Part shown: positions 25,590 to 49,071 of the stretch, one piece after another
Layout: the number at the start of each line of letters is the position of its first letter
Position numbering within the stretch: position 1 is the stretch's first letter
NCBI GenBank assembly: GCA_965655095.1
Contig: OZ296655.1
Span: 18,724,001-18,788,000, forward strand
Length of the DNA: 64,000 nucleotides
Reading direction: 5' to 3'
DNA from: Haplodiscus bocki
Taxonomy: Eukaryota
Translations under genes and position numbers: made by a program
Notes under the pieces: model-generated
Seen by the model: only the letters and a program-made list of their open reading frames with translations
Database searches by the model: none
Told to the model about the DNA's origin: nothing

Positions 25590-26460
25590 TCCCAGTCTCG
25601 GATCAGAAAACACAACATTGGACAAAAACTGGTGATATTAAAGCTGCTGATCTCTACGTGTTCAGAGGAACTTTTTGAAAGTTTTACGTAAAGAGTTCTC
25701 GAAATGAAAGCGTTCCGAGTATTTGAGCAAAAAATAGCTCTTGTTCTCAATGAACACTTCTACGTTTTCAAAGGAAGATTTTGACGAAAAATTGTTGTTT
25801 TGAAAAATTTCAAGAGCTTGGAGTTTTTCGGACTTCTAGAGAAAAAATTTTGGTAGGTGTTCTCAAAGTTAATTTTTTCGAATCCAGGGGTTTCTTTTGA
25901 ACGGAATAGTAACCTGCCTGATTTTCTCAGAAATAGACTATAAGTGTCTGGAGGAACGTATGTAGCAAGTAGCAATAAGAAACTGAAAAAAATAAGGAGT
26001 CTAGATTTTTCGGACTTCAATTCAAGTTTTTTTTTGCTGTTGGAAAACTGCACAGTATATGTCACCAGAGGAAAATTTTGAGCCTCGAAAAAAGTCTTCC
26101 ATTTTATAAGTTGTTTTTTTCTGTCCTTTTGGAATTGGACTAAAATTTTCAGCTGGTGTTGTCAAAACTATCTTCTCATTTGCCGGAGGAAGATATTGAG
26201 CTAAAGAATAATTTTATATGAAAAAATGTAGAACTCTAGCTTCTGAGAAACTGAGCAAACATTTTTCAGCTGTTTTTAACAGAACTCCATCCAGGTGCCC
26301 AGACTATCATTTTGGGAAATACATTTTTTCCTCCTGAAAGTGCTGTCTCGTAAACAAAGGACCAGCTGCGCGAAATTTTTGAAAAAGTTTAAGTATTCAT
26401 GTTTTTTTTTCGGATTTTGGGCAAAAAACGTTGATTCAGATTTGCAACATGTTTTTACTA
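25590..26460. repeat. Degenerate tandem satellite, unit roughly 110-120 bp
   Basis: Recurring ttttcggac..., tgagcaaa and ctacgtg/tcagaggaa..ttttgag modules, with gaggaa/aaggaa cores near 25665, 25771, 25950, 26068 and 26187. Confidence 0.55.
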
Positions 26461-26464
26461 CAGT

Positions 26465-27140
26465 GGACCTGGACAAAAGCAAGAAACAAGCTAAAAATAG
26501 AAACAAGCGAAAACAAAAACAAGTAAAAGCAATAAATATTCTTGTTTCGATTTGTATATACTTTTGTTATTTAATATCACCCTGGCCCCGTATTTCAAGT
26601 TCCAGTTAGACAATCTTGTTTCGTTTTGTTTATAGGTTGTTGTTCAATATCACGCGTTCCCGCATAGCTAGCGTCAATTATCAAAATTTTCGTTAATAAA
26701 AAAATCATACTTCTAAGCTACAGAAATCATAACCTTTTGAACCGCGAAGTTTCTAAAGTTCAGTCAGCACTCCCATTCTTCCTTTTGGAAACTTTCCAGT
26801 CCCAAAAATCTCATCTCTCCAAACCTTGTGAAATTTCAATTTGTACTCACTTTACTTCGGACTACTAGTTATGTAAGCGAACATTTTATTTTATCTAATA
26901 TTTCAAATTAATATTATTACAGGGATCTTTCATTCAGAACAATCCCAAAAAAAACAAACAGAATACCTATCTAAAACAAACGTCTTCGTATCCGAACTAT
27001 TGAAAAAAAATGAAAACTCAAAACTCTTGTCGCCAAATTGGCATTTTTGTCACGGTTGTTAAATTGATGACAGGAGTGGGATTGTTTTAAAAGTTTTTTC
27101 TAGTCTGGCAAGACCGTAGTTTTCCAAAAACTGCCTGAAG
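26465..27140 (+). repeat. 5' LTR (portion alignable to the 3' LTR; 5'-truncated, may extend to ~28142)
   Basis: ggacctggaca.aagcaagaaa...tttgtatata...ccagttagaca...tcatacttctaagct...aagttcagtcagcactc...ttttgtcacggttgtt is repeated at 38958-39640. Confidence 0.85.
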
Positions 27141-28353
27141 ACATTAAGATCTCTTTCCCCGGACTTGTGCTGCGCTAGCACTAGTTGGTGCTCCACTAGC
27201 GATAGCGAAAACCAATTTAGACGGTAGATAGGGCCCATAAGTAAGCAAACTCAAATGAGCACGGGCAGTTAGGCATTCGGTTTCCTTAAATGTCTCTTCA
27301 AAAACAGTGAGTTCAAACTTTTTACTAGATTTTAACCACAGCATCGAACTGAAAGTCTAATTTAACGTAGTTTCATTTATTCGTCTTTGATTTTAAACAA
27401 TTGTAACCCCAAGACTTTTTCTTTTTCTAACTTTTTCAATTTTTTTCGAGAACTTTGTCCATGCTTCATAATCATACTAACCAATATCTTTGTATGTCCT
27501 AAACCCCAACCGACCGGTTGACTCTCCGCCACGTTATTTCCGGAACAACTTCTAAAGGACACATCTCGATAGCGCATCCGTCTGTTTAAGTGCCTTTTTT
27601 TGCTTTCTCCATGTTGTTTCTCTTACTTCTGTTAGTGCTAGGACACGCCTTCATTCCCCTGCAGTTGGAAAATGTAGCTGCTAGCTGTGCCAGCACACCA
27701 TCGACATCTTCATGGTTTTCCTAGAAAGAAAAGCAAAATTTTCACTGCTTTCACCACCGCCGCTGAATGTTTGACTTTGTCTTTACCTCTTATTTGAAAA
27801 CGTCATCTGCAAGCCAGCCCCCATTAAAGTAACCGTTTTTTGCAAATTGAGAAGTTTGGACTTGTTCAACATCTCCAGGCGTACCCAGAACAAGATTATT
27901 GACTGACACCGTACTATTCATTTCTGTCTTTGAATCTCTTGCAACGCCACGATAGCCAGCACACAACTAACATTCTCAGCCATAAAAATTCTAGCATAAA
28001 ACAGCCTTCGCGCGTCCATCCGAAATCTTTGTTCTGTTTTTGATTCGCTAAAGAGTGGGTGGAAAACTTACACAGTATTGATGCAAAATCTTAGAATTTT
28101 GTACCCCTGGGTGTGGAATAACAGAAGTCTAACGGTGAAACATTTTGAAGTTCGAATCAAACTCTTCATAAAAATTGGGAATCAAGGTATTTTTCTAATT
28201 CTTTCGTCCCCCACGACGTTGTCTGTGGGAACTTTCGTTCTTTTAGCATCACCATTAACCAATCTACCATAGAGCCTACTTGTGATCACCTGCTATCACT
28301 GCCATGTGGTTCAATACAGATTTCCTGTCAAGTATCACCCCTAAAACAACAAA

Positions 28354-30168
28354 ATGCCCTTCTACGACCATCCTGAATTCTTCCTACACCAAAAGTTTGA
28401 AGAAGTTCACTCCCATTATCATTTTTCGGGCCCAACAAACACGTTGAAGTACACTTCAAAACAGTTGACAAGTACTATTGCAAAAACACAATCGGAAATT
28501 TTTTACAAGCGTTGAGCCAAAATTTGAGCGTTCAAGCTTACAATTTTGCTTACATCAACAAAATTGTCTGGAACGGTAATGGAGACCCCATCAAATTTTT
28601 TGCCTATAATTTCCGAGAGTTTCCTTCTCATGATTTTCACCGCGAAATTTTTCCACATACTCCCAATTGGTTACGTCTTTATTCGTGCTTAGCTGATTAC
28701 AGGCATTTGTATAAAGACAAACTTGTAAACGAGCACATGTTTGGAGAGCTAAAAGACCAACTTTCTATTAATCAAACTCAAAATCACAGTAAAAACTACG
28801 CCAGAATGACTGACGTTTACAGTTAAATGGAAACCTTGGCTGACCAATCAGCAGCAGGAAAGGGAAATTGAGCCGCTCCAACTCAGAAAAATGCTTCTTT
28901 TGGATCTCACTAGACCCGATAAGTCAACACTGGAACCTCAATGGGACCACTTTTCTCCACAATTCTTGGACCTGAAGCTAAGCCATTTCCACCCATGGTT
29001 GTTTATCCCGGATCATTTGCCAGCAGCACAGTCACAATTCCTTCCTGCCTCAAGCCTGAATAGCTTACCGGTTCCGGAGACTTCAAGGATTACCTCCAGG
29101 AGTTCAATACTACAGCGAAGCTGTCCAGCTGGTGCTCGTTGAAACGGGATCATCGTTTCTAAAATTGTGCTCTACGATTACTAGAAAACAACCTACTTTT
29201 TTTCACATTTTTGTCCCCCAAACAGCAAAACCTTTACAACCTGCTCGTCGATGTTTTCACGCAGAACTACAAAACTGAAGTCGATACTTTAAAAGCACGA
29301 TTAAAAGCTGCAAAACACCGACCGGGACAAGATATCGCCACGTTCCGACGTAGCATCCCCACTCTAACAGGACGCGCTTGTCGTGCGCACCCTCATCTAA
29401 TTGATGAAAATGTTCACACTGGTTTCATTGAGGGTTTAAAAAACTCCATATTGCGCTGGGAATTGAGAAAAACAAAACCGTCGACGGACGATGAAACCTT
29501 AGCTTGGATATTGAGCTCGACTCATTCCTGGCTTTGGAGCGTCAAAACAAGGCTCCACTTTTTATCCAGTAACCAATATATTTAACCAAGTCGCAGCAAA
29601 CAGTTCTCAGAAAAACACCGTCGACGAACTGCTCCTAACACTACGTGACGAAATCAAAAATTTGAAGTCCCTGAATATTCGGAGAGAAGCTTCTGGTGAT
29701 CGAGACCGTCAACAGTACAGCTCGAACGACCAAAATTGAAACAAGACTGATTCCAGCGATCGAAGACGAAAACGATGCAACTCTAACGGAAGAAATGGAC
29801 TCCAAGAAATTTGTGATAACGGGAAACGTCGTAACTCGAGAAACCGAAATGGTAGCTCAAATTCTCAGTCAGTTTGATTCTAAGAGGACCGCGTTCGTAA
29901 ACAGCAAGACAATCGATCACTGAACAGCGACCAGCGACATTTCCGCAACAGCCCACCACAGAACAACAACGGGACATCGAGGCAGACCAAGAACAATTTA
30001 AGCAACAGAAATTCTACTGTTAGCAACTTCAGAAGCCATAATCAGGAATGTTGGCACTGTATGGGCAAGAACCATGCCTCTAATGAACGTAAGACTTGTT
30101 TCAACTGCCTTCGAGTTGGCCATTTCCGACGAGAGTGCTTAGCCCCAAGAGCCAACAAAAAAAACTGA
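28354..30168 (+). pseudogene. gag: Gypsy Gag with long N-terminal extension, capsid domain and two zinc knuckles
   Basis: LKPE*LTGSGDFKDYLQEFNTTAKLSSW...ALRL...LKARLKAAKHRPGQDIATF...FIEGL...LRWELRKTKP. Knuckles CWHCMGKNHASNER (last C lost) and CFNCLRVGHFRREC at ~30048-30140. Confidence 0.88.
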
Positions 30169-30199
30169 AACTGTCATCGCGAAAGGGCTTTGGCGCAGA

Positions 30200-33100
30200 T
30201 GTGAACGCCTCATGTACATAAAAAGCTGTTGCACTGAATTCAATACTTAAGTCTCGTAGTGTCTTCGTAGAATTGACGACTTTTCACAGAATTGTGGAAG
30301 CAGTGTGCAACTCTGGAGCAAGTGTGTCTTTTCTGAGCCCTGAGATATACAGTGACCTGAAAAAGACTCAATAGTTTGCTCTAGAAACTACCACGCGGCA
30401 TCTGAGAGCTGCCAATGGCCTCTCAATGGCCATGGGAGAATCATAAAAGTCCCTGTTCACCTGGGAAACAAGCTTTTTCACAATGAAATTCGGGTGTCAT
30501 AAAACTCACAAGCGGATTGGTTTTTGGGGTTGGACTTTCTGGAAGGTCAATAGTGTGACCCATTGTTTTCAAGAAGGGAGCTGATATTGGCTCAACCCAA
30601 TCCGTTCACTTTTACCATAAAAATTTGCATTTGATAGCGATGCCGTGTTCCGACTTATTGTCACCGAAACCGTTCAAGTGCCAGCAGGCTATGCAAAACT
30701 TTTTTAAGCTCTTTTTCTAAATTGAAGGTAACCAACTTTCCATCTAAACGGTGGCTTTGAGCCATTCGAAAAAATTTAGGCCATTCAGGACGTCTCAATC
30801 CCAAATATATCAGTTGAATTTTCTCGAGACGCAATCTCCATAGTTTTCAATAACACGACAAGACCCGACATTAATATGTTCAAAAAGATTTATTTGGGTT
30901 CCTCACTAGTTGTAATTGGAGACTGTTTGAACAACAATAGCACAGCGTGAGGCAATGAAAACATCTCATGCAAGCAACAAGCCCACTCCCAGTCAAAAAG
31001 GAAACAAGAAATAACAATTTGCAAACGTTGGTAAACTCAGTTGATTCCGGCATCAAAGCGAAGTACTCCCGACAGTTCACAGATCTAGTTCAAGAATTTG
31101 ATAGCGTCTTCTCGTCCACTGAATGAGTTTTGGGTCATTGCCATGCCACTGCGCATCGCATCGAGATCTAGCCCGGATCAAACCCAGTCAAAATTCCGAA
31201 TAGACTAATGCCTCTCCACTACAAAGACGATATTCAATCAAAAAATGACGTGTTCCTGGAAAAGGACTTGATATCGCCTTGTCATAGCCCTTATAGTTCC
31301 TCCAGCCATGTTAGTGCCAAACAAGAAAGGAAAACTTGACCTCGTCATTGGCTACCACCAACCTAGAAGAAAACAGTCAAATCTAGTCGGCCGATGCCAA
31401 CTATTGAAGAGACCTCTGATAAATTGGAAAGCGGCACGTACTTTTCAACAATAGATATTTCTACTGGATTGTATCAGGTGCCATTGGACAAGGAAATTCA
31501 AGATTACACTGGCTTCAGCACACCCGTCGGCTCCCTTAAGTGGCTTCGAAGGCCAGGGGGCCTCACAGGTAGCCCTAATATCTTCCACAGCCCCATAGAA
31601 CATTTTTTTCAAGTCTCACAAGGAAGACTTGTGTTTGATATCTTAATGACTGTATCAATTTTGTAAAGACCGCGGAAGGGCACATCTCTTGTCTAATCCA
31701 AGTTTTCCAACGTTTTTCCGAGGCAAATCTCAAAATAAGTTCATCAAAAGGTTCATTTTTTCAATGCAAAGTTCAGTTCCTTGGCCGCGTTGTGAGTGAG
31801 AATGGCTTCCAAGTGGATGCCGACAAAATCACAGCTGTTCTTGAATTCCCAGTGCCAAAAAACCAACTTAAATGAAGTCTTTTTTAGGTTTGGCATCCTA
31901 CTACCGACGTTATGTCAAGGTTTTGCTTCCATTGTCCGACCTTTACACAAAGCTAGTGAAACGTCATGCGCCTTTCAGTGGACAGACGAAGCGCACATTG
32001 CGTTCGATTTTTAGAAGACAAGTTTGACTACCACTCCATTTTTGGCATTTCCTTCGCTCCAAAAACCAAGCATCCTACACACAGACGCAATCCATATTGC
32101 TATGGGAGCGGTGTTGGTAGAAGAGCATGATAGTTGCGAACGCATCAACTGCTATTTTCCAAAGGTACTTTCGGAATCTCAAACCAACTCGGCAACACGC
32201 TGTGGAAGTTTGTGATTTGTGACCTTTATGCGACACTTTCGCCACTACTTTGTCAAGCGTCTTTTCACAGTAGTCACAGACTATCGCGCACTGCCATGGC
32301 TGCACAGTTTCGAGGGACCAGATGGCATAACAACGCGTTGGCTGAAAAAGTTAGCTCCTTTCGACTACGCAGTGAAACACCGACCGGGAAAGTTAATTGG
32401 TCATGCAGATGGTCTATTCAATATCCCTCCCGCGATGAATACAGTAGCAGAATTTTTCCCAGAATCTGATCCACAGTTTTGTTCTGGTGTTCACGCTCCA
32501 CGCAACTCACTCGACGTCAGCCATGATACCGATCATAGACACGTTACCTGACGAACAAAGAAACCCAGATCATCTTTCTGTTCCTGCAAAAAATTCTCGA
32601 TAGGACGAAGTAAATTGAAACTAGCGAGAAGTGGTAGAAAACATCTTTGACTCCAAAGATTTAATAGCCCACTGTGTTAGCTGACTTTAAAATGTCAGCC
32701 AGTATTCCCAGACAAATTCGTCGCAACTACTTTTTACCTACCCCATTATTCTTGACTACACTCTCCATCTGGCCCCCGTGGTTATCCGACTCAAAGCGGT
32801 ACATTTACCAACTCACAACCAAGCAAAATTTCTTCATTAAGCACACATTTGGTACCCCGCGGGCCTCTCTGGGGCGTTTGTGCGGCCACGCCAATCAAAA
32901 TGACGTCCAATGAATCAACTTGCCATGCATTGGATCGGGTCTTGATAAACTTGATTGGAGCAAGGTGCGATAATTGACAGATGAGACGTTTCGAACCTCC
33001 CTTGTCCAGATAAAAGTTTTTACGAAACCCGGCGTCAAGTATGACGACAACACTTTTGAATAGCTGAGCGACAGCCACGCCTTGTTGAAAGCACAAGAAG

Positions 33101-34911
33101 CAGACTAGGTTCTGCATCGCCTTCGAAAATTGGTTCGGGAGAGACATCTCCCTAAGAACAACGAAATGCAGGTACTCCAGCGTTTGGGTTGGCAGCCTCA
33201 TAACCGATCACAGGAGTTGTACCTGAAAGAAAACGTTTTGTGCCGAAAATTTGAGTCCCTCGACGGTAGTCAGTCGTACTTCTATGAGATCATACCTCGG
33301 TCCCTAGTTCCTCAAGTTCTGATTTTATTACATAGTTCACCGGCAGCAGGTCACCTGGGCGCGCACAAAGTGAGCAACATAGTTCGCCAGCGTTAATAGT
33401 GGCCTGGATTCTAGGAAGATGTTAAAAAGTTCCATCGATGTTGTGATGTGTGCCAAAAACGATCAAGTCCGCCGAAGACGTTTTGCCATTCTTTAATTGA
33501 CTGGAAAATCAGTTACCTTTTTAATCACATTGATTTGATTTTCAAGGACAGATTCTTAGTTTTAACGGTATTCAGTTTGTCATTTTGATTCGCGATCACT
33601 TCACGAAACGCTGGGAAGTGATACCGTTCCCAGATCAACAGGCACTAACCACTGCAAACGCGCTTTTGGAACACTGGTTTTGAAGACTTGGCTGTCACTA
33701 TAGCATTCACACTGACCAATAGCGAAAATTTGAATCCCAGCTCTTTCAACAGTTGATGAGACTGTTTCGAATTGAAAAATGCACACAACCTTCTTCCATC
33801 CTCAGTCCAATTCAGTCATCGAAGGCTTGAACCGCACGTTCTTGATTATGCCCACCAAGAGCATTGACAAAAAGCAAGCCCAGTGGTCGTACTTTTTACC
33901 TTTCGTCTTGATGACATATCGTTCCTCGGTGCATGAGTCCACCGGTTATACTATCAATTTCCTTGCACTCAGTCATCAGTTCTTCTTTCTTCTCCATGTG
34001 ATGTACCCTTCCCCAGAAACCAACAAGCCAACGGACGTAAACAAACATGTGATGCAAAAGCAAGCTGTTTTCCACACAATTTTCAAGCCTAATTAATGTA
34101 ACACTACCACTCAACAGAAACGTAGATATGCTTTATAAAACAAAAACGTTCAAGGTCCAACATTTCGCGAAGGAGTTTACATCCTGTTTCATTATACCGT
34201 TACAGTAATAGGGGAAAGTCTCAAACTCTTCAATCCCTGGAGAGCTTTTTGCAGGAGGCTGAAATGTATCATAGATGTGAACTACAAAAATGAAGATGTG
34301 AGCACTCAAAAACAATTGAGTGATCCCAATGGTCGGTTGAAGCTTTATCACGGACAACCTCTTAGTCCACCTAGCATACCCGATTGTCAACCTGCCAACA
34401 GCAAAGTCCTCACACGGCCACCTTTGAGGCCCATTAATCTTGATTGTTGTGTTGTAACCTTGCCGCCCCAGTCTTTCTCAGCGTGCCGCGAACACGCCTA
34501 ACACCTTTCCCAACACACCGTTCACCACCATCGAGCCCTGCTGTTTCGGTGACTTCTCCTTTACTTCCGTCAATGACTCCCAGGTCATTCCCCGATTCCT
34601 TCAATGCTTCCACAATCCCGTCAGATTCAGCGTCCCCACCCAATCCTTTCTCTTATAAACCAACTCTAGTTCCGGACTTTGATCAGCAACCGCACTTTCC
34701 CGAGCGTACGCCCTCTTCTCGATCATATGTTGTCCCCTCCCCAGTTGACACCATCATCCAGAAGGCTGCGCGGCAACTTCAAGAGGCTAATCAAATGCTA
34801 CCTCTTCCTCCCGCACATTCTCCACGGCAAAACCTTACCCACCAACGCAAGGCGGAGCCACTCTACAAGGTTCGTCTACCCGGCGATCTCACTAACCTTC
34901 TGTCTTTATAG
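30200..34911 (+). pseudogene. pol: Gypsy Pol: protease, RT, RNase H, macrodomain, integrase, Pro/Ser-rich tail
   Basis: PR VCNSGAS (DSGA-like). RT SPYSS..., MPTIEE..YFSTIDISTGLYQV..TGFSTP, VQFLG, FLGLASYYRRY. RH LHTDA..IAMGAVL, HFRHYF..FTVVTDYRALPWL, HRPGK..GHADGL. INT LHSSPAAGHLG...CDVCQ, HPQSNSVIEGLNRT, YRSSVHESTGYT. Confidence 0.95.
32628..33030 (+). pseudogene. TARG1/OARD1/DarG-type (Poa1p-like) macrodomain within Pol
   Basis: EVVENIFDSKDLIAHCVS/ADFKMSASIPRQIRRNY...RYIYQLTTKQNFFIKHTFGTPRASLGRLCGHANQNDVQ*INLPCIGSGLDKLDWSKVR*LTDETF...IKVF follows the TARG1 pattern AHCIS.D..MGAGIA / RYIYYLITK / SMPRIGCGLDRLQW. Confidence 0.88.
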
Positions 34912-37230
34912 AAATCCAGGAAACCGAAACGCCATTGTTTTTTTGTAACACGCATCAGCATTCTGTCAAAGCCAGTGGTCAGTACCGAGTTATTTCCCGG
35001 TAATCTGCTTCTTCAAGAGCCTTCATTTCGCAAGACGTCTACAGCCCCGTTCTCACTGCTTCTTTCCTACGCCCTGTAATCTCGCAGATGTGCCGTTCGC
35101 CACCCATTGGAGCAATCCTGTGGACAAACGACTGTTTAGGAAAGGTGCCGAGTTTGTTTTTAAGTACCAAGCAGTGATGTCAGAGAGTGAGAGCAGGGTT
35201 CGTGTGTTTTCACCGTTCCTCAAGATTTCCGAGATCAATTTGACCAACGCTTATACAATTCTTCAAACACGAGGCCATACCGACTCAATGACTGGCAGGG
35301 CTACAGTCAAACTGTCGATCAGAGCGCATGGGTAACTTATATGACCAATTTTTTGACCAGCTGGATCAGAAATTTTCCCTGATACAAAAGAAGGTCAAAG
35401 CTGCACACACATCAAAATTGCTCGGTGGAGTTGGCAGCGTCCTTCTTTCTATCTCCCGCTAAACCTAAGCATAGCACTGATCGTAGTGAACGTGCAATGG
35501 GACTAACAGCAGCGGCCAAAAGACTGTTTCTTGGAAATCCACTCAAAAACGCTGCATGTTCAGCAATCTCCATTTTTAATCTTCTCACCGACAGCAAGGA
35601 GCTATAATCAAATACTGACCACGTCATGGGATCTTAGAAACAATTTCAAGTTGTCTTGAAAAAATTGCTGACAAGGAACACTGAGAAAGTTTTACTCTGG
35701 GAAATGAAATTAAACAAACAATGGAAAATGTACAGAAAAAACAACGGAATTAGTTGGCTGTCAATTGAGTTCCTTCAAACAGAGCTCTTTGAAATGAAAT
35801 GCGTAATTGCTGCATTGTCCGTACGCAATGTTGACCTCAGAGAGATTATGATTTTCAAGCAACAGATCTTTGACTAGGTGGATCGTTTGGGAATCCTGTA
35901 TGTACACATCAAAAGCTACCGAGCCGCTTTTTATGTATACAAAATTGCGCCCTTTTTCACAATTTCGTCACTTGCAGCTGGCTTTCCTTCGCAACAGTCA
36001 CTTCAGCCCTCAATTTTTCTTCCCTTCTCAGTTGGCTACCATAGTGAACGATCTCGCCAAAGACAAGATCATGAGAGTCCAAAACCTTTCCATGCGATTC
36101 GTGTCAGCCACGAAGCCATTTAATTTGACGTTAAATTGGTCTTAGAAATCGCCCTTCTCTCTCAAGCTATCTTCGTTGTCCTCGAATTTCTGATGAACTC
36201 CAAGGAGCCCATCAATGTCCATCAAGCAACCCCCATTTACCAACCTAACCAGGCTGGAGATACGGCTTCCTTGTACCAGTTTCCGAAAGTTTTTTTGCTG
36301 CCTCCCCTGACAACTCCCTCCCATTCCGCTGAACTGAGTGCTTCTAGCTTTCATCAAAGCTCAGGAAACGACCGTATTAAATTTTGTCGTCAATGTTTTT
36401 CCACTACGACTGACGAAACACATCTTTGTCTGCCTTCCTTGTATCATAAATATAACATTCTTCGCCCTTCGTCTTTGTAGAATTGGGTCCGTTCTCCTAC
36501 TGGAGGCCCCTCGAGCCTTCTTTTTAGTTGATGGCATGTACCCTAAAATTCAAATGAAATATTATAGTGGTACTGGTTCCCCTGTTTTTACCTTATCTCG
36601 TATAGCTTGCCTCGTCCGAACCAGCTGCCCCAGCACATTCTCGTTCAACCAAGGCGATTGGAAATCGTCCCTGATATCAATTTTTGCAAGACCATTCCGC
36701 AGCCTTTTGGTTGCCTCCACTCGGCTCATACCATCCCCCGAACAGGTATTTAGACATGATCCCGAGGTTACTCACAAATTTCACACGTTTTCTGTTGCTG
36801 AAGCCTGTCAATTCGTCCTCAGTAGTGTCCGATTTGAATGACCTGAATTTTTTAACCTTGGAATCATGGCTAGTGAAACGCTTGCTGACATCACTCGACC
36901 TATTGCACAGAACTACTCATCTATCTCTTCAGCTACATCAGCCGCTCTGTCATCCTACCTCCCAACCGGCACAGGAGTCTGTTTCTTCTCATCTCCATCA
37001 CCCTCTCCATCCTGACGTTTTTCATCAGTTTCACGCTTTTTTGCTGACAATGGCGGCGGTTCTTCGTGCACCCAAACGTTTCTTCAGTCCCACCTCAGGT
37101 CGACATTTGCAAATTGTGGACGGCACTCCTTCCACCGCCAAGGATTTTCTTTTCCATACCTTTCTGTTTGAAATTCCAGGTTTTTCAGGCACTTGCGCAG
37201 GCAGCCCTACAACAAAAACCCTCTGAAACT
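34912..37230 (+). pseudogene. env: Envelope-like class I fusion glycoprotein (F-protein-like), disrupted
   Basis: RSER (RxxR) followed by a hydrophobic Ala/Gly segment AMGLTAAA..LFLGNPLKNAACSAISIFNL, a helical heptad region, a Cys-rich region (IKFCRQCFSTTTDETHLCLPSLY...LRLCRIGSVLL.EAPRAFFLVDGMY...ACLVRTSCPST), and a hydrophobic SILTFFISFTLFC near 37010-37046. It lies between pol and the 3' LTR. Confidence 0.78.
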
Positions 37231-37871
37231 CTCAATGACGCTCTTTCTTCAACGCTCCCCAATGAGAACCCCCTTCTTCTATTAAACTTTCTAACCCTAG
37301 TCCTTTCTTGAATCGTGTGTTCCTTTCTGGTAGTGCTCTTATTTACACTGAAACCTCTAGTTGAAAACGTCACCTTTCTAAACTCCTTCCTCATCAACCC
37401 TTTTCTCTACTTCTTGCCAGCAGCTTTTTTATGCCCTTCCGACGCGTTTTCGCGTTCTCGATGCTCAGCGTTGCCCACCCACTGGTTCCCCTTACCTGCG
37501 TTCCCAGCCGGTTGCCGTGCCATTCATGCAGACGGTTTTCAGCACTTCAACCCACATTTTTCCGTGTTCACCTCAGAGTCCTTATGACGATTTCCCTTCC
37601 TGACATACTTCTCCGTATGAAAATTGCATTACTTGCTCTTTTTTATGTCCTATTTACTATTAATTTGTTGAAGGTATTTTGTCGGTGTGGTCGTTCTTTG
37701 TTTCGAGTCCTCCTTCAGCTTCTTCAAACGTCAGCCTGCGGTTCGCCAGGATGTCCTCACGAGTTCTGGTCGCGTTCACGCTGTTGCCGTAAACGACCAC
37801 GCTTCTTAGTTGAAACCCTCCGATGCCATGTCACTTACATTTCCCCTCAGCCTGACACCGTCTAATCACAG

Positions 37872-38831
37872 AATGTCAACACACCTAATCGACCGTTCAA
37901 GCGTTGCCTTCGCCAAATCGGGTTGTTCCCACCTCCTACTGCAGACTGCCCAGATTCTGTTGACCTGCCCTCCAGCAACTGTTTTTGTCCTGAAACTCTT
38001 CCTCCTTCTGTGTTACCGACGTCGAGGTGATTTCTATGCAGACTGTTGCAGAGGTTATGGACGTGTCTGTCCAGGCGGACATCGACGGAACAACAGCTCA
38101 GAACGCATGGGCTAATCTTACTAAGGACTTTTCGTCAGTTAACCAACTTGACACAGCTTTACAGGAAGCCCATCGGGGAACCGAAGTCTAATATGACTTG
38201 TACGTTGAATCTGACAAAGTCTTAACTGCTGCTCGTGCCTCCATTGAAAAGCTGATCACGGAACTTCGACAGCTGCGCGCTTCCTTGCAAGACCTAAAAA
38301 CTGCTCATATCAGTCTCATTAAAGATTGTCTCGATAAACTTGAGGAGATGAGCTCTCTGCGGACTCGGATGAGCCAGGCAGACAACTTACAGATCAAAGT
38401 GCTGAGCAAAATGCTGCACACAAGTCTTCTACCCCTGCCCACTGACCTGTCTGCTGCTTCCACTCCAGATGATACTCTCTATCATTGTCTCTGTTGTAAT
38501 CCCTCAGCGGACACAGCCACAAAAACCCACCATGCCAACACCTTCATACGCCGCGTGCACCCTGACAAGACCGGTTCCTAGAAAAATCCGCCGGTTGGTG
38601 CTGCGTCCTTCCTCATACCCTTCCTCACCAACATTAAAAAAGTTCTCAGAAAAAAACCTTTCGCGCAGTCTATGACCACTGTAGGTTGACCATTTTGCAG
38701 GAGCTACTCGACGATCCTCTGTGTTGCCTCTTGTGCACGCCTACTTATGCGAACGGGTTTCCAAGTAAGCAGGGACGTTGCGAGTATCCCCATTTTTTAG
38801 GCTCATTTCCAGCTCCTGAATGGCTCCGTTA
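37872..38831 (+). pseudogene. Accessory ORF4: coiled coil plus DnaJ-type J-domain
   Basis: Heptad helix SIEKLITELRQLRASLQDLKTAH...LDKLEEMSSL, then DTLYHCLCCNPSADTATKTHHANTFIRRVHPDKTGS*...FLTNIKKVL. After a frameshift in an A-run it continues FRAVYDHC. Confidence 0.72.
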
Positions 38832-38881
38832 GTTCCCTCCGTCAGCGTTCTTGCCTCATAGGTACCTTTTCAGGTTCCACC

Positions 38882-38901
38882 GGGGGGGGGGGGGGGGGGG
38901 G
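38882..38901 (+). other. Polypurine tract (G20)
   Basis: Run of G immediately 5' of the 3' LTR. Confidence 0.75.
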
Positions 38902-39713
38902 AAGCAAACATTGCTGATTGAACGGAAGCAGTCTCAAGTGGAGGGAGTCAATAAAACGGACCTGGACAGAAGCAAGAAATCAGCTAAAACAGAAACAAGC
39001 AAACACAAAAACAAGTAAAAACAAAAAGCATTTTTGTTTCAATTTGTATATACCTTTGTTATTTAATTTCACCTCGGCCCCGTGTTTCAAGTGCCAGTTA
39101 GACATTTTGGTTTCGTTTTGTTCATAATTTGTTGTTCAATATCAGCCGTCTCTGCATAGATAGCATCAATTATCTGTTATTCTATGTTCTTGAAATCTTT
39201 ACGGTAGCATTCTTGACAAAAGTTCTCATACTTGTTCCCCGCACCCAGTAACTTGAAAATAATTGTTTAAACAAGAAAGATCATACTTCTAAGCTGGAAA
39301 AACCATAGCCATTGGAACAACGAAGTTTGTGAAGTTCAGTCAGCACTCTCATCTTTTTTTGTAAACCTTCTTCTTCCTATCAAATAAATCTCATCTCCTC
39401 AACTCTTGTGAAGTTTCAATTTGTACTCTCCGTCGAACTAGTAATAATATAAGACAACAATATTATTTTACGTATGTTTTCAATTCAACCTTAAAACGCA
39501 GATATTTTATTTAAAACAATCTCAAGTGAAAAATAAAGAAAACCTATCTAAAACAACCATCCTGGGATCCAAAATATTGAAAAAATTGAAAACTCAAAAT
39601 TCTTCTTGCCAAGTTGGAATTTTTGTCACGGTTGTTGAATTACCATGCCTCATGGTTTCAAAATTTAAGAAACAGGGGATATTTAGTTCCACTTGCCACA
39701 AGACCTGCCTGAA
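38902..39713 (+). repeat. 3' LTR
   Basis: Starts right after the poly-G tract. It is a direct repeat of 26465-27140 with an extra ~80 bp at ~39175-39255. Confidence 0.85.
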
Positions 39714-40830: not shown

Positions 40831-41833
40831 AAACAACATCTACCTATAACATACTTATGTTTAGTGATGTACACATAACCATAATCGTAATCGGTGGAAT
40901 AATTTTTCTCAGACATAACAACATATAATTCCACATTTATGTGAACGTAGAAAAAAAGAAAAAATTACACCGTCGCTTTTATGTTCCACTGAACAACCAC
41001 TACACTTGCACATTCCAATGAGCGTCAACTTGTTTCACTTTTTTTAAAGAAATTTTTTGACGCTTAATGGAATAATGTGGAATTTATGAAATTGTCCAGT
41101 GAGTTTTTGTCTTTGCGTGACTGAAAATACATGGTGACTGCTACATAGTTTTTTAAGGATATCTCCGTGAATATTTACCCGATTAATGTCAAATAAAAAC
41201 TGGTGTGAACTTAATTGAATTAAGAAGTTTGTTTCGAGAAAAAAGTTGAAAAAAATTGAACTTACCATCTTAACAGGGCAAAAACTAGACTTACCATCTT
41301 ACCATGGTATACTCAGAGCTTGTCGGTCTCAAATAAAAACGAAAACTCATAATTTATTTAGTCTACCCTGAAAGTTTGAGCTTCATATCTATGATACATT
41401 TTGAGACAACCAATTTTGAAAAAGTTCAAAGGGTTAAAACATAAATAAAAACCACTCAAGTGGAAATTTTTTTCATTTTCCGTTTAGACTTTCCCACGGT
41501 CGCTTAAACATGTGAAAGTTACGAAATCAACGAAGTTTTGAGCTACAGAAAAGTTTAATATATAGTTGAAAACGTCTTGAAAAAAGCTGTTCAATGATAG
41601 TTTTTTTCGAAAACGTCGGCTGAATTCATTACCATCGAAATCCTGAATGTAACCTCAAACATGCTTTGTCAATGAAACATTTTTAGTAGCAGTGGAGCAT
41701 TATATATCTTTAGAAAGGTCTTGAAAAGGGTAATTTAATGCTAATGTTTTCAAAATTTTTTACCATATCATTTTTCATCAATATGAATTTCTTTTTTAAT
41801 CATCCAATTACGAATTGCAAAATGAAAAAGATT

Positions 41834-42085
41834 TTATAAATCAAAACAATGAGTTTTTACATATTCGGGATTTTGAGATAGTATTTTAAAAATTTGTCTA
41901 TGCATTGTTGGTATAGGAAATTTTAGATAATAACGTATATTTACATTTGATAGATTACTATAAATTTTTATTGTCAGTTTATTTATTTGATTAAATATAA
42001 AACTTTTTGTCGAGGAGTTTTTAGTTTTCTTTTTTTCATTCAAGTTCGTGAATTTGTCAGCTATTGTTAAATTAAATATATCCAT
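41834..42085 (-). pseudogene. Polinton accessory ORF downstream of pPolB (copy A)
   Basis: 83 aa ORF duplicated at 48820-49071; function unknown. Confidence 0.45.
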
Positions 42086-42358
42086 ATTACCATTATTTTT
42101 AAGTTGAATATCCTATACACATTTATATTGAAATGTATGAAAATATTTTTTTATAACAGTCTCTAAGACAAATATCAATTATAGAATCTTTTTTCTGAAC
42201 GAGTGGTTTAATAACTTCATATTCTTTGACAACGGTTAACTGGTTTTCGTTCATTATAACATTCATGTATTGAAGAGGAATATATTTTAAAAAAACTTTT
42301 CAACAAAACATAATAAAATTGAACTTGTATTTAGATAGTTTTTTATAAATAAACCATC

Positions 42359-45250
42359 CTATTCTTCAAAATAAAGAAGCATATGACCAAATTCATTAGG
42401 AGCTTCTCGTTTTAATAAATATAAATAGCTTCAATTTCTATAATTTGATTTTTACATTTTGTATATAAATTTTTATCCTTACATTCATTACAAAATCTCA
42501 TTTTCGTTGGTTTAACAACTCCATTATTAAATGATTTTTTCCAACTTTTAGGTAACCTAGCTGATATTTTTTTGCCTTCTATCATTTCAAATATTGAGAT
42601 CGATTAAATAATCGTTTACTATCGTTGAAGTCTTTGAAGGTCATGTGTTGTTGATTAATACCAATTTCGTAAATAGTGAAACAATATTTTGTGTCAGGAG
42701 CAAGGAATAAACCGTAAAAGATGCTTCCTGTTTCGTATTCTTTTTTACCATGGCATAACTTCTTACCAACTAAATTTACTTTACCTAACACATCCCAATG
42801 TTTTTTTTCTATATACACACTATCCGTATCTCCATAATAAATACTATTATTATAAAGTCCGTTGATTTCTCTGATAAAATTATTCAATATTCGTTCACTT
42901 TTACTTAATATAAAAGCCCGTATTCGATTTGGTATTATATTTTTCATATCATTGTCACCATCTAAACCATCGTCTTTCTAAAATTTCAATATAAAGATTC
43001 CATTTGGTGTTTTTCAATAACCTAACACATTTTCATCGTACTCTGTTCCCATCCAATGTTGTGATTTACAATTATATAATTCATCTATGTCTCTGCGTAT
43101 TTGAACTCCGTAAAGACTGTTCATCATTAGTTTAACTAAACTTTTCATCAAAAAGTATTTTCGTCTTTAAATTTTTTTCGTAAAGCAAACATTTTTTCTA
43201 TAACTTTTGTAAAAGGCGATATTCTAAAGATTTCTCAAAAAATAACTCCTCCGTAAATTCGAATTACTTTACCTCCAACTTTCGCAATTTCTTGACTATC
43301 AACTGATGTTAATGTGTCATTAATTTTTTTATTTTTCATGCGATTAACTTCGATATTTTTATCTTTTTCTTTAACTGGTAAAACTTGAAATATAAGATCA
43401 GGAGGATTGTAATGTTTTAGTTTTAATATAGCAGATTCATTACCATCTTGGTTAAAAATTTGATTGTTAAAAGCTTTCACATAAACATTGTTCATATGAT
43501 GTTTAATAGCAAATCCAGTTTCTTTTTTAGGACACAGCGAGTTTTCATCCCACATAGCAGAAGGATATAAGGAGGTAGCATCAAAGTCCATCATAAAATC
43601 AGAAAGATTCGGTTTTTTTATTTTTTTGTGTATTGGTAGTTTTTTGAGTTTGTACTTGATATAATTATTCCTTACTTTTTTGTTGATATCTCTATAGTCA
43701 TCAAATTAGGATTCATATTCGTCTTCTATTTTCTTTCTATGTTCATTTGAATATTCAAAAAGTTTATCCAAATCTCGCATGTATTGCCATTAATGTTAAT
43801 GTTAAAATCTTGTGACATAATATTAGATACTTCATCTGAATTAAATGAGCTATAATATTGATGTAAAGCTGCACGTCTACCAACTTTTATGCTTTGTCTT
43901 ACAAAATGAGACAGAAATTCATCGTTATAAGTATAGATTGGTTCACCGTTTTCATCTCTTAAACTAATAAAATATTTATTCGCTAAAGAAGGTAGTGTTA
44001 AACTATTTTTCATACCAACTCCTGTTAATTACTCCATTCCCTTTGAATCTCTAGCATGAGCGAAAGCAGTTGATAAAACGCCGTTCTTAAGATAGGGTAA
44101 CCATTCACTTTCTTTCATTTCCCAAGTGTCCTCATTAATTTCATCATGTTTTAATTCTTTTTAGGTTGATCTTTCTTGTAATTCATATTTTTTTCGTTTT
44201 TTCTAAGAATCTTTACTATATAATATGCCGCATCTGAAATGAACATACTGAGGGATCTTTTTGTTTTGCTCTACATTACCGTTGAATATTTTAAGAGATA
44301 CAAATCCTGATCCGTTTTTAATCAAACTAACAACTGTTCTCCATTGAGGTAATCTATTAAAAAAACATAACTATCAAATCCTGATCATTTATGGGCAAGT
44401 AAGTAGAAACTATATTTAACAATGTTTTTTTAATTCTTTCGGTCCTCCTTTGAATTGTAAAACGTAATCTAACATTTCGTTAATATTATATAATCCTTTA
44501 AAAACATTACAATCTTTCTTACATTTAGTCATTTTCTTTTTCTGATATATCTCGATTGTATTCACCTGAAATTTTACTTAGTTAATGTATACAATTAGGA
44601 TAAGGAACACATTTTAAATTATTAAAAGTTTCTGTATCATAAACAACCATGTTAGTTATTTGAGATTGAACTTGTTTAGGTTTGTTTTCGTATTTAATAA
44701 AACTTTTAACATGTTTATCAGATATAACATTATCAACAACTTTAAAATTTGGATATAACTCGTTTTCTATTGCCTTATTAAAAATAATATTGTTTGATTT
44801 CCGAATTAAGCAGAAATGATTATTATTTATTTTTATTGCTATATTTCTTTCTGGAATATGTGTAGGCCATACTTCTTTACCGTTAAAATAACCAATGTTG
44901 ATATTGTATTTTCTACAGACTGGTTGACTTCTAGCAGATGCCAGTACATTAGATCTTCTTTGTTCAATTAAACTAAAAGTTAAAAAAAGTTCTGTATAAT
45001 CTTTACCAGTTAGATAAATGATACACTTTTTATAAAACGATTATCACTTGTAGGAATACAACAGTTGTTAACTAAATATTCAACAATGTCTTATCTGAAA
45101 TCCGTACCTCTACCATATTCAGATCTGTTTACTTATTGAATTCAGATGTGTTTATTTTAAACAGCTATTCTGTAAAAAGAACATCTTCACTATCGTAACC
45201 ACCTTTATCTATAGCATTAAAACAAGTTTCGAAATCATCGACATTTTCAA
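42359..45250 (-). pseudogene. pPolB of Polinton #2, copy A
   Basis: Exo I VVYDTETF, Exo III PYLKNG, motif A DFDATSLYPSAM, motif B LVKLMMNSLYG, motif C YYGDTDS. Confidence 0.95.
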
Positions 45251-45254
45251 ACCT

Positions 45255-45865
45255 ATTTAAAAAAAACTTTTTTCGAAAAAAACTCCTAAAACCTCGAATA
45301 AGAAAACACATTTAATCGAAACAGATCGAGAAAAGGATTTTTTTATAAATATTTTTTTCAAAAATTCCCATAAAACAAAAACATTAAACATTATTCTAGA
45401 AATTCTTAGAAGCTGTTTTTGCAGAATGTTTTAACCGTACCCTGAAAGATTTTCTTAAACCACCTGTTTTTGAACCAGGTGATGCTAACTGGATTGATGA
45501 ATTAGCCACAATAACAAAACAGTATAATAATTGAGTACAAACTTCTACTAAGTTAAATCCACTACAAGCTTCTTTGAAAACGAACGAAAGATTTGTTTAT
45601 CAAAATTTATTAGACGAACGAAAGAAAATAGAACCAAAGTTTCATGTAAACAACCGCGTTCGAGTTGGTGCTTTGCGAAAAACGTTCTCAAAATCGGAGA
45701 CGACAAGTAGGACTTATAAATTAAATAAAACTAGTGAAGTTATTAATGATACACTACCGAGTTACGGCATTGATAATTTACCAGAAAAATATAACGAAGC
45801 CTCATTGAAAAAGACAGAATAAACAATGAAAGAGAATGATACCATCATGAAAAAGTTAAACTTAA
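45255..45865 (+). pseudogene. 5'-truncated integrase, copy A
   Basis: HLIETDREKDF, AVFAECFNRTLKDFLK, NWIDEL..ITKQYNN, RKTFSKSETT. Confidence 0.88.
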
Positions 45866-47148
45866 ATTAAGTCAAATTGTCTTTGACCATCACTACTGAC
45901 AGACACTATATTATTCGTTGATAAAAGAGCATATCCGATTAAAAATGTTGCTGCTGGAACGGCTGGTCTGAAATCAAATCTTACTTTTATAAGTTGAGCA
46001 GAAATATAATCTTGATGATGACTTATATCAAAAACATATACATTATAACCAGGGTTACCATCTGGATAAAGATTAGAAGTTACAAAATCTTTTTGCGTAA
46101 TATAGGTTTTTGAAGCATTACCTTTATCTAGATGTCTAAAACAGGAAACAATTTCTCCATATGCTTGTGAATATTTTTCAAAAACATAACTACAATTTTT
46201 TCCTGCATCCGAAAGCTTTACGTTGCCAATGACACATTGAGCATTTACTACACTTGGTTTACGAAATGTATCATTTTTCTGATGTTGTTGATTAATTTGA
46301 TCTCTTTGCATAAATCCTACTATTACATAAAATGGTATATCAACACCATCTCCAAAGCCCAGCTCAAATGTCCAATCATTTTCAGTAGTTACATCTTTCA
46401 TATAAGATGATCTTTTAACATATGACAATTCAGTTGGAGCTTTAGATACAATATGTCCTAACATTAAATTTTGATTTGACATACCCATAATATACTGCGG
46501 AAAGTACCAACTGAAGTCTTCTATAATAACTCTTCCAGCCAAAGCAAGATTTGCTTCAATGTCAATTCCTGCCCGATGATTTAATACAAGATTATTACTT
46601 TTTCTTTGAAATGTTAGCTTATAACCCAAACCATGAGTGCAATTATCTTGCTGTTCTGCAAAACCAAAAACATCTTTTCAATAAAGTCTAACATGGTTAT
46701 TTCATTCAGTTGTTTTGTTATTAGTCAATTCTCTTTCTCGAACTTCATTACTAGTGCGAAAATCGATTGATAAATCGTCACTATCTCTGCTACTTGATAA
46801 CATTTTGTACATTAAACAAATAACAGGAGCATTGTCTACATCCTCTATTTCCTTTCCACTTGAGCTTGTCAGTCTGTATTTATTAAATAAGGCAGTAGGT
46901 CCTAGGTTAACAAACTTTATATGATCATTATCTGCAGATCGAGCATGCGGACCAGCTTTATGACTTATATTAAAATCTAAATCAAGATTACTATCTTTCA
47001 ATGAAACAGCACTATAATCTCTAAGTCTATCAATAAAAACATGACTCTTGTCTCCATTTACAAGAGTTAACGAAGGTGGAGTATATCTAATATAATCACA
47101 TTTGAGAGTGGGTCTTTAACAGCAAGTTTTTGTGATATGTTAAACATT
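45862..47148 (-). pseudogene. Major capsid protein, copy A
   Basis: LKCDYIRYTPPSL...FVNLGPTALFNKYRLTSSSGKEIE...FGFAEQQDNCTHGLGYKLT...IPFYVIVGFMQRD...YSQAYGEI...GYNVYVFDI...SSDGQRQFDLI. Confidence 0.85.
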
Positions 47149-47237
47149 TATAAAAGTAAAAAAACTTCTGTTCTGTTATGTTATATAAGATTAAAATTTT
47201 TAAAGATTTTTTTGTGCTGAGTTGGATTCATGCATTT

Positions 47238-47990: not shown

Positions 47991-48004
47991 TCTTTACTTT
48001 TAAT

Positions 48005-48287
48005 TCAAACTATCATATTTATATCAGTAAACCAGAAAGGTTTCGTCTCAGGAGTACATCCATTAGAAGTATTTTTTTTACCATTTCTGATAGTATATAT
48101 ACCCTCTCCTATTTTAGCAAATCTGTTTTTTTGTAAAAAATCATAATCATTTGACCAAGCTTTACGACAGAGTTTTTTCCATGTTTCTAAATTCATATCT
48201 AATCCTGCTCTATCATGAATTAATAGTATGATATCTCTTAGAGTTTGCATAAATGAAATTTTTATAGTAGAATTATTACGAATAGGG
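48005..48287 (-). pseudogene. C-terminal fragment of packaging ATPase, cut by the tandem junction
   Basis: IRNNSTIKISFMQTLRD...AGLDMNLETWKKLCRKAWSNDYDFL, homologous to the C-terminus of 15590-16150. Confidence 0.8.
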
Positions 48288-48819: not shown

Positions 48820-49071
48820 TTATAAATCAAAACAATGAGTTTTTACATATTCGGGATTTTGAGATAGTATTTTAAAAATTTGTGTATGCATTGTTGGTAT
48901 AGGAAATTTTAGATTATAACGTATATTTACATTTGATAGATTACTATAAATTTTTATTGTCAGTTTATTTATTTGATTAAATATAAAACTTTTTGTCGAG
49001 GAGTTTTTAGTTTTCTTTTTTTCATTCAACTTCGTGAATTTGTCAGCTATTGTTAAATTAAATATATCCAT
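48820..49071 (-). pseudogene. Polinton accessory ORF (copy B)
   Basis: Nearly identical to 41834-42085. Confidence 0.45.

Follow-up and report, generated by a model that had tools for sequence, protein, structure and literature searches.

The question raised by this locus is whether a 64,000-nucleotide stretch of Haplodiscus bocki DNA (the window) holds an envelope gene of the class I fusion type, as an earlier note had proposed, and to which kind of element such a gene would belong. The region is very probably the decayed third open reading frame (env) of an env-carrying Ty3/gypsy element that falls under the operational term 'ancient errantivirus' used by Chary and Hayashi (eLife 2026; PMC13524379). 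The features concerned are collected in Table 1.

Table 1. Features of the element and of its env pseudogene, in window coordinates.
Feature	Position	Strand	Remarks
5' LTR	26455-27064	+	about 610 bp, ends approximate; direct repeat with 38948-39640
Primer-binding-site-like sequence, probably tRNA-Leu	27065-27083	+	directly after 5' LTR
141-aa stop-to-stop frame upstream of gag	28401-28826	+	no Pfam match at E 0.5
gag, broken	28830-30170	+	capsid-like region and CCHC zinc knuckle
pol reverse transcriptase and Ty3/gypsy-type RNase H, broken	31373-32521	+	
TARG1/OARD1 (C6orf130)-like macrodomain in pol, broken	32650-33030	+	between RNase H and integrase
pol integrase, H2C2 zinc finger and core, broken	33292-33979	+	Integrase_H2C2 E 1.9e-14; rve E 0.0042; tblastn with P0165
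F-type env pseudogene	about 35030-37360	+	444/711 aligned residues identical to P0001, 415/738 to P0002; parts: signal-peptide remnant, F2, cleavage site, fusion peptide, heptad repeat, Cys-rich beta region, TM, cytoplasmic tail
Furin-type cleavage site, minimal RxxR in this copy	35482-35493	+	aligns with R-x-K/R-R of relatives
Fusion-peptide region, degenerate in this copy	35494-35550	+	10/19 aligned residues identical to P0001
Heptad-repeat region, broken by stops and frameshifts	35587-35934	+	71/113 residues identical to P0001
Transmembrane (TM) segment	36974-37047	+	17/24 residues identical to P0001
ORF4, broken: coiled coil, then possible J-domain	37693-38808	+	5 relatives at 59-68% identity, tblastn mapping
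Polypurine-tract-like stretch	38936-38947	+	purine-rich, directly before 3' repeat; inferred from position
3' LTR	38948-39640	+	about 690 bp; holds 84-bp segment missing in 5' copy

The element is about 13.2 kb long (about 26455-39640) and shows the order LTR-gag-pol-env-ORF4-LTR, with all parts on one strand. Its terminal repeats are 81% identical over 600 columns (K2P 0.22), and no target-site duplication was recognised at the element ends. The primer-binding-site-like sequence presumably shares a longer resemblance with the 3' arm of Leu tRNA. Its 12-nt reverse complement differs at 3 positions from the nearest Leu tRNA ends in the eLife supplement (PMC13524379), and for this reason the tRNA-Leu assignment is weak. 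ORF4 relative P0164 aligns across 38829-38978 and runs into the 3' repeat, which implies that another copy has the identical ORF4-LTR junction. This junction, together with the positions of the primer-binding site and polypurine tract, identifies the repeats at 26.5 kb and 39 kb as the LTRs of this element.

Within gag, the gypsy polyprotein P0165 matches 29049-29513 (tblastn, E 5e-6), and Pfam places zf-CCHC at 30091-30138 (E 0.0038). The pol region matches RVT_1 in two frames (E 5e-6 and 8e-5), RT_RNaseH_2 (E 3e-16) and RT_RNaseH (E 1e-13), and its RT/RNase H part aligns with P0165 at E 8e-40 (tblastn); a homolog search with a frame covering part of RT returned three distant polyproteins. 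The protease region gave no Pfam match, and roughly 80 residues before the integrase zinc finger gave no significant alignment to P0165. The env homology starts about 1 kb past the integrase core match, on the same strand and within the LTR pair, and the GC content of env and the element interior is 0.44-0.45 against 0.32-0.33 in the flanks. Every ORF of this element copy is interrupted, and no gene of the host was identified within the window. Judged by sequence, the LTRs with primer-binding site and polypurine tract, the gag, and the RT-RNase H-integrase order with gypsy-type domains assign the element to the Ty3/gypsy LTR retrotransposons.

The gene was originally placed at 34912-37230. No ORF spans that interval; the env homology overlaps it and is shifted at both ends. 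Frameshift-aware alignment to the intact database relative P0001 gives 62% identity over 711 residues. The homology to relatives begins at 35084-35087, and a degraded stretch resembling a signal peptide lies near 35035 (a weak match, E 0.14); none of the N-termini of four relatives matches 34912-35030 significantly. At the other end the homology continues beyond 37230, to 37278 (P0001) or 37361 (P0002). Measured against P0001, there are six stops (35605, 35635, 35875, 36121, 36839 and 37045) and 14 frameshifts, all within 35312-37169, while P0002 gives 15 frameshifts; the disabling lesions number about 20. The longest pieces between stops measure 118-183 aa, a search for an in-frame ATG for env found none in this copy, and Pfam returned zero matches on the three forward frames of the region. 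Eight of the 13 cysteines of P0001 are retained. This env copy makes no protein.

An RxxR motif by itself is uninformative here, since 11 of them occur across the three forward frames of 34912-37230. The one singled out in the earlier note reads R-S-E-R and is followed by a Gly/Ala-rich hydrophobic stretch. Its codons align exactly on R-S-K-R of P0001 (3/4 identical), and the same position is R-x-K/R-R before a hydrophobic peptide in all 8 close full-length relatives; R-x-K/R-R is also present in 10 of 12 distant ones. A hydrophobic 19-residue peak (at least 1.5) directly follows the cleavage site in 7/8 close relatives. Likewise, a hydrophobic signal at period 3.4-3.7 was beaten by none of 300 shuffles in each of five relatives, and the predicted model of P0002 has a long helix (235-322) after the fusion peptide. 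The TM-like stretch of the copy reaches a Kyte-Doolittle 19-residue mean of 2.3 at 36979, the maximum over all three frames, and a matching C-terminal peak is found in 20/20 full-length relatives, the TM calls being hydropathy calls throughout. The N-terminus is hydrophobic in 5/8 close relatives, and the other three start further downstream. The proposed order of RxxR site, fusion peptide, heptad region, Cys-rich domain and TM segment is borne out by the alignment to P0001.

The evidence for the F-type class comes from intact relatives, not from the decayed copy. Nine intact proteins match at E 3e-91 to 5e-45, and 964 proteins match at E up to 1e-3 in a representative library. Five of the nine closest clusters have 33-141 member sequences, and the relatives form an identity ladder from about 70% down to 21%. 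A quick env tree (24 rows, no outgroup, long-branch warning) sets a close clade, 10 sequences strong, apart from more distant groups and does not speak to the origin of env. The intact relatives probably also lie in gypsy elements.

A 38-relative profile matched the 'fusion protein' 9W4C/9W4D in PDB at E 7e-8, with the next match at 0.0036; an 8-sequence profile matched no PDB sequence below E 0.01. The entries 9W4C/9W4D, which we guess to be baculovirus F, are absent among the Foldseek PDB matches listed for the P0002 model. The top ESM Atlas matches of P0002 are Baculo_F and Fusion_gly clusters (0.94-0.95), at a recognition score of 1533, under the guide value of 2300; one cluster with 46% PF07253 stands at rank 20 (0.92). 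Pfam Baculo_F was matched in just 2/26 relatives at E 0.0019, below the Pfam cut-off, and Fusion_gly in 0/26. The Gypsy env model PF07253 was matched in 0/9 close relatives (E up to 1) and 0/17 distant ones (E up to 0.01). Torovirus spike matches over the heptad region of the relatives (E 1e-4 to 1e-2, below cut-off) were read as non-specific, and the other Pfam matches were mostly coiled-coil noise.

Predicted structure points the same way. The P0002 model has pLDDT 76.3 and pTM 0.62, with pLDDT below 50 at residues 155-254 (the fusion peptide/HRA part). Foldseek against PDB gave 194 matches at E up to 0.001 (best 4e-7); 41 of the 41 listed are paramyxo/pneumovirus F, at TM-scores of 0.16-0.25 by query length. 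VIA superposition gave Z 8.4 with RSV F (374 aligned, rmsd 16.1) and Z 8.1 with Nipah F (288 aligned, rmsd 5.3), and in a wide search independent of Foldseek the top seven rows were F proteins, none with Z of at least 8. The structural scores are moderate overall (Z 6.5-8.4), and the top matches are all F proteins. Sequence profile, language-model features and predicted fold therefore agree on the proposed likeness to paramyxovirus F and baculovirus F, and a class I F-type architecture is supported for the intact relatives; the fold comparison suggested for a repaired protein was made with P0002 in its place. Compared with paramyxovirus/pneumovirus F, the predicted fold and the order F2-cleavage-fusion peptide-HRA-TM are alike, but identity is 6-14%, the ectodomain exceeds theirs by about 150 aa and includes a further helical segment ahead of the TM, and the gene is borne by a retroelement.

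Contrary to what the earlier note had implied, the arrangement itself is not new, since gag-pol-env elements with F-type Env have been published for many animal phyla. Chary and Hayashi surveyed 1,512 env-carrying Ty3/gypsy elements, including non-insect F-type env (PMC13524379). As to the suggestion that the env may have an origin independent of insect errantiviruses, in the published tree the ancient F-type Env stands apart from the insect F-type Env, yet the authors infer a shared ancient pool and not independent capture (PMC13524379). The operational errantivirus of that survey, with an F-type env downstream of Ty3/gypsy pol within LTRs, describes this element, while its rule of intact ORFs leaves this dead copy outside. 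By description, the likeness covers gag-pol-env between LTRs, a Ty3/gypsy-type pol, similar size, a probable Leu primer-binding site, and an Env with signal region, furin site, fusion peptide and TM. Different here are the TARG1-like macrodomain that follows RNase H in the RNase H-integrase bridge and the ORF that follows env. The ancient group is marked by RNase H and a 'mini' domain in that bridge.

Other published elements are comparable. Insect errantiviruses (gypsy, ZAM, Idefix) and baculovirus F share the F-type class I fusogen, with weak Baculo_F similarity and structural similarity to baculovirus F models; however, PF07253 was unmatched in 26 relatives, and the insect bridge is a pseudo-RNase H. 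The available passages on Oikopleura Tor3b/Tor4b describe gypsy elements from outside the insects with a membrane-bound Env cut by furin, a glycoprotein whose products have sizes in line with cleavage, and for Tor4b a gap between pol and env as seen here; unlike the present copy, the Tor elements are active and expressed (PMC4402516). Likewise, the bdelloid rotifer TelKA, in the part of the report available, is an LTR element with a paramyxovirus-F-like Env carrying RXXR, fusion peptide, coiled coil, cysteines and TM, though of about 600 aa against about 780 aa in the present Env family (PMC5408684). This env is a new, dead member of a published kind of element.

The macrodomain and the post-env ORF4 are more unusual than the env. 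In a phmmer search of PDB, 5/5 matches of the macrodomain are OARD1/C6orf130 (best E 9.4e-11), covering residues 47-125 of a 127-aa read-through whose N-terminal part is frameshifted; Pfam Macro matches at E 0.039. Sequence homology thus assigns it to the TARG1/OARD1-like type. Gypsy polyproteins of fish and other animals in databases may often carry this type of macrodomain, in which case its novelty would drop. The literature searched on macrodomains and gypsy/LTR elements gave no description of one in gypsy elements. Macro domains are reported as extra ORFs of fish epsilon-like ERVs in the available text of one study (PMC4977317), and passages of 10.1101/2021.11.30.470311, PMC7050489, PMC4695847 and PMC12440569 contained nothing relevant. 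LTR elements are known to capture varied extra ORFs (dUTPase, GDSL, DEDDy), with 0 occurrences of 'macro' in the accessible part of that report (PMC5408684). The term also has 0 occurrences in the main text of the eLife survey as available, the figures of which show unnamed bridge outlier domains (PMC13524379).

A J-domain in ORF4 is possible and serves as a lead only. The top three ESM Atlas matches are DnaJ clusters (0.89-0.90; recognition 3076, 149 shared features), and the HPD motif is exact in the window copy alone among five aligned sequences. The model (pLDDT 51) has four helices at 93-161; Foldseek reached the Sis1 J-domain at E 6 at best, which is non-significant, and the other fold search was dominated by the coiled coil. 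Pfam and PDB sequence searches gave no DnaJ match for ORF4, and no description of a J-domain in gypsy elements was found in the literature searched. A wider reading, which we regard as tentative and rather doubtful, is that the element represents an undescribed enveloped gypsy lineage with a deep-branching F-type Env, a TARG1-like ADP-ribose hydrolase in Pol and a coiled-coil J-domain protein (kinds of cargo typical of true viruses), in a host phylum unsampled by the 1,512-element survey. The macrodomain would then counter PARP-based defence or strip ADP-ribose from element cDNA or proteins, and the J-domain protein would recruit host Hsp70 for particle assembly or uncoating.

As the env of an errantivirus-like element, the gene in functional members would encode a type I membrane glycoprotein, some 780 aa in length, that has the F fold of paramyxoviruses, pneumoviruses and baculoviruses. 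The signal peptide would deliver Env into the ER, where it may trimerise, and a furin-like protease would cleave it after R-x-K/R-R. The N-terminal piece would then comprise about 140-165 aa and the C-terminal one about 610-630 aa, the latter beginning with the hydrophobic fusion peptide. Upon triggering, the heptad region would extend to a long coiled coil, the peptide would enter the target membrane, and refolding would fuse the membranes. Such fusion would carry Gag-Pol particles from cell to cell, most plausibly from soma to germ line. Relatives 26-52% different from P0002 retain the full ORF, cleavage site, peptide, cysteines and TM, a pattern suggesting that env in diverged intact relatives has been selected for its function. 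That the ancestor formed infectious enveloped particles, as had been proposed, may reasonably be inferred, since cleavage site, fusion peptide and TM are conserved across these relatives.

It could be argued instead that the F fold was kept in a family that is no longer infectious, with env serving receptor interference or particle trafficking, or merely carried along. According to the survey discussion, transmission of such elements is unknown outside Drosophila (PMC13524379), and among the best 150 library matches 128 are below 600 aa with at least 35% identity to P0001, which is consistent with many decayed copies. However, the diverged full-length relatives all keep cleavage site, fusion peptide, heptads and TM, and the closest clusters are populous, so this loss of infectivity is considered unlikely.

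It is far less probable that the gene is an endogenous non-retroviral fragment, a chu-like or baculo-like glycoprotein that lies inside this one element by chance or as a recent capture. The best BFVD matches of the P0002 model are indeed fusion glycoproteins from chu-like RNA viruses and baculoviruses (E 4e-19 to 1e-13), and of those few members of the top ESM Atlas clusters that have a record, 50-83% are viral; but those structural matches are just 10-15% identical, the gene sits in the canonical env position between LTRs with the strand and GC of pol, and its relatives form an identity ladder. Very improbable, too, is a lokiretrovirus/Odin-type or BEL/Pao element in place of Ty3/gypsy. In the available text on lokiretroviruses, their Env is also paramyxo/pneumovirus F-like with an RXKR site and some have an extra SMC-like (coiled-coil) gene, comparable to the coiled coil of ORF4; yet they are reported as vertebrate elements, sister to retroviruses (PMC7947760). 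Here pol matches the Pfam models for RNase H of the Ty3/gypsy type and for H2C2 integrase, neither a Pao-specific nor a retroviral RNase H model is among its matches, and a macrodomain rather than a second RNase H follows RNase H. A domesticated, syncytin-like host fusogen, for which the intact ORFs of some relatives might speak, has next to no likelihood and is refuted for this copy by its lesions, the lack of any start found and the equally decayed element.

The env of this decayed errantivirus-like element adds one example to a class on record from most animal phyla and by itself alters the picture very little. Its value lies in leading to a family of intact, multi-member Env clusters with an F-type protein that Pfam hardly recognises, and this bears on the sharing of class I fusogens between retroelements, baculoviruses and negative-strand RNA viruses. 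Should active members carry the macrodomain and the J-domain-like ORF as standard parts, this would be an invertebrate LTR element equipped like an exogenous virus, with cargo for counter-defence and for recruiting chaperones, and a defensive role of ADP-ribosylation against LTR elements would become directly testable.

The region 34912..37230, described in the earlier note as an Env-like class I fusion protein, has no open frame across it (its longest pieces uninterrupted by stops measure 118-183 aa), and Pfam found no match in its three window frames. A single frame (35431-36519, stops written as X) used as the query recovered, among 2,431 candidates, nine proteins of 664-784 aa (E 3e-91 to 5e-45), all unnamed, five of which sit in clusters of 33-141 members. 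In a frameshift-aware alignment, 444 of 711 residues are identical to the intact relative P0001 (35087-37278); the reading is interrupted by six in-frame stops (35605, 35635, 35875, 36121, 36839 and 37045) and, from 35312 to 37169, by 14 frameshifts. For P0002, another intact relative, 415 of 738 residues are identical, with 15 frameshifts, and the alignment reaches 37361. No in-frame ATG was found in 34850-35110, where the single ATG is out of frame. Judged from these alignments, stops, frameshifts and the misplaced ATG, the copy is a pseudogene extending over about 35030-37360. The gene is present as noted earlier, but its limits differ and it has no open frame.

Direct reading of the sequence gives R-S-E-R at 35482-35493, followed by a Gly/Ala-rich hydrophobic stretch. 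As RxxR occurs 11 times in the three forward frames of 34912-37230, the motif evidence first offered for a cleavage site required support from outside. This was provided by the alignment, in which RSER falls exactly on the R-x-K/R-R site of the relatives. With a profile built from eight relatives, 964 proteins lie within E 1e-3, of which 612 pass 1e-10 and 271 pass 1e-30; the best 150 of the 964 comprise 128 fragments of <600 aa and 2 longer proteins, all with at least 35% identity to P0001, and 20 more distant proteins (21-35%). The anatomy was followed in 20 full-length relatives (8 close, 12 distant; P0006 and shorter matches were excluded), with signal-peptide-like and TM-like segments called from hydropathy. 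R-x-K/R-R lies within residues 90-230 in 8/8 close and 10/12 distant relatives, usually immediately ahead of a hydrophobic peak, and a C-terminal TM-like peak is present in all 20, which carry 12-17 cysteines each. The N-terminus is hydrophobic in five of the eight close relatives, the remaining three starting further downstream. The heptad periodicity of the 115 residues past the fusion peptide was reached by 0 of 300 shuffles in each of five relatives. The proposed order of cleavage site, fusion peptide, heptads and TM segment is therefore seen in full-length relatives.

Pfam is nearly blind to this family, Baculo_F reaching E 0.0019, under the cut-off, in 2 of 26 relatives. However, a 38-sequence profile searched against PDB matched the 'fusion protein' entries 9W4C/9W4D (E 7e-8, profile positions 215-441), and Baculo_F and Fusion_gly clusters ranked top in the ESM Atlas (0.94-0.95; recognition score low, 1533). 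The AlphaFold2 model of P0002 (38-sequence alignment; mean pLDDT 76.3, pTM 0.62) has a confident beta-rich head and long helices, with pLDDT <50 across the fusion peptide and first heptads. Searched with Foldseek, this relative's model has 194 PDB matches within E 0.001 (best 4.4e-7), and among the matches listed 41/41 are paramyxo- or pneumovirus F, at TM-scores of just 0.16-0.25. Among predicted viral structures the glycoprotein of Hubei myriapoda virus 8 ranks first (E 4e-19). Other chu-like glycoproteins are also among the top matches, as are a protein from an abalone herpesvirus and the F proteins of baculoviruses (2.7e-16), all at 10-15% identity. VIA-align gave Z 8.4 with post-fusion RSV F (374 aligned, rmsd 16.1) and Z 8.1 with Nipah F (288 aligned, rmsd 5.3). 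An independent search of 48,161 chains placed F proteins in the top seven ranks (Z 6.5-7.5, none at Z 8), with foamy virus Env and coronavirus S2 below. These scores are singly moderate, yet four kinds of evidence agree on a predicted F fold, which the window copy would share through its 56-62% identity to the relatives; the F-type Env assignment was thus a sound one.

The abalone herpesvirus protein (BFVD A0A145VUZ2, uncharacterised, E 1.2e-16) suggests that a mollusc herpesvirus carries an F-type fusogen-like protein. Ranid herpesvirus proteins in BFVD also match the model (E about 1e-7).

The direct repeats on either side (81% identity over 600 columns, K2P 0.22) are taken as the LTRs of a 13.2-kb element because a PBS-like sequence lies directly 3' of the first, a purine run lies directly 5' of the second, and P0164, a relative of the last ORF (ORF4), aligns through the internal-repeat junction. 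The PBS-like sequence differs at 3/12 positions from the most similar of the listed Leu tRNA ends, and no target-site duplication was recognised at the element ends. The GC of the interior is 0.44 against 0.32-0.33 outside. The LTR divergence indicates an old insertion.

Features of the element and of its surroundings (window positions)
Feature	Position	Strand	Remarks
Non-LTR (LINE-like) remnant	~4870-8590	-	RVT_1 E 9e-12 at 5899-6198
Inverted repeat pair	3560-4704 and 21417-22447		70-77% alike, ~17-18 kb apart; may represent one dispersed repeat in two copies
LTRs	~26455-27064 and 38948-39640
Open stretch, 141 aa	28401-28826	+	between PBS and gag; no Pfam match; may be an accessory ORF or 5' part of gag
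gag with CCHC knuckle	inside element	+	broken
RT	inside element	+	broken
Gypsy-type RNase H	inside element	+	broken
Macrodomain-like segment	32650-33030	+	part of pol, flanked by RNase H and integrase
Integrase	inside element	+	broken
Proline-rich open stretch, 155 aa	34444-34911	+	downstream of integrase; probably the pol tail; its stop is the env start noted earlier
env	inside element, after integrase	+	broken
Hydrophobic open stretch, 166 aa	37365-37865	+	separates env from ORF4; no Pfam match
ORF4	37693-38808	+	downstream of env
Tandem duplication, ~5.7 kb	41300-46961 and 48288-53964		94% identity, spacing ~7.0 kb
Decayed ORFs	~42500-62300	mostly -	by eye like a Polinton/adintovirus-like element
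Degenerate tandem array, short	59384-59776		units ~30 nt
Gap of 155 N	near 60240-60390		

Pieces of the decayed ORFs carry what we take to be family B polymerase motifs and packaging-ATPase-like, integrase-like and capsid-like regions; Pfam gave no match at E 0.01 on ten such pieces.

The architecture of the element is already known, since F-like Env proteins on LTR elements appear in a published survey, in rotifer TelKA (PMC5408684) and in lokiretroviruses (PMC7947760). Chary and Hayashi describe 1,512 env-carrying Ty3/gypsy elements, all intact, from most animal phyla; in many of them the Env is F-type, and its furin site and fusion peptide are conserved. Their genome list lacks some phyla, including Xenacoelomorpha (PMC13524379). 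Whereas their elements are intact, the window env belongs to a dead copy of the same published kind. Ancient and insect F-type Env form separate clusters there, less clearly with viral homologues added, and an ancient acquisition was inferred. An env origin independent of insect errantiviruses, as raised in the earlier note, is conjectural. PF07253 matched 0 of 26 relatives of the window env, which fits a non-insect lineage; our quick tree of these relatives has no outgroup. The main text of the survey does not contain 'macro', its bridge outlier domains being unnamed and shown in figures.

Given the observed homology, motifs, layout and predicted fold, the ancestral env very probably encoded a class I fusogen for cell-to-cell spread of Gag-Pol particles. 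By analogy with known class I proteins and with Tor Env, a membrane glycoprotein reported to yield products of the sizes expected from cleavage (PMC4402516), it would enter the ER, assemble as a trimer, be cut by furin into pieces of ~140-165 aa and ~610-630 aa, and refold upon insertion of the fusion peptide, so serving particle spread. It is likely that the family made infectious particles.

The element carries further cargo. The segment between RNase H and integrase matches human OARD1/TARG1 structures (E 9.4e-11, 5/5 PDB matches), and macrodomains of this type occur in database gypsy proteins. ORF4, with five relatives at 59-68% identity, combines a coiled coil with a region whose spacing we take to be J-domain-like. 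DnaJ clusters ranked on top in the ESM Atlas for its relative P0162 (0.89-0.90), and a low-confidence model has four helices in that region. Pfam, PDB sequence and fold searches gave no significant match, and among five sequences the window copy alone has an exact HPD; a coiled-coil and J-domain protein is thus a lead. No description of a macrodomain or J-domain in gypsy elements was found in the literature searched, which covered few subscription papers or Repbase reports. The macrodomain and the possible J-domain ORF are the part of the element that deserves further attention.
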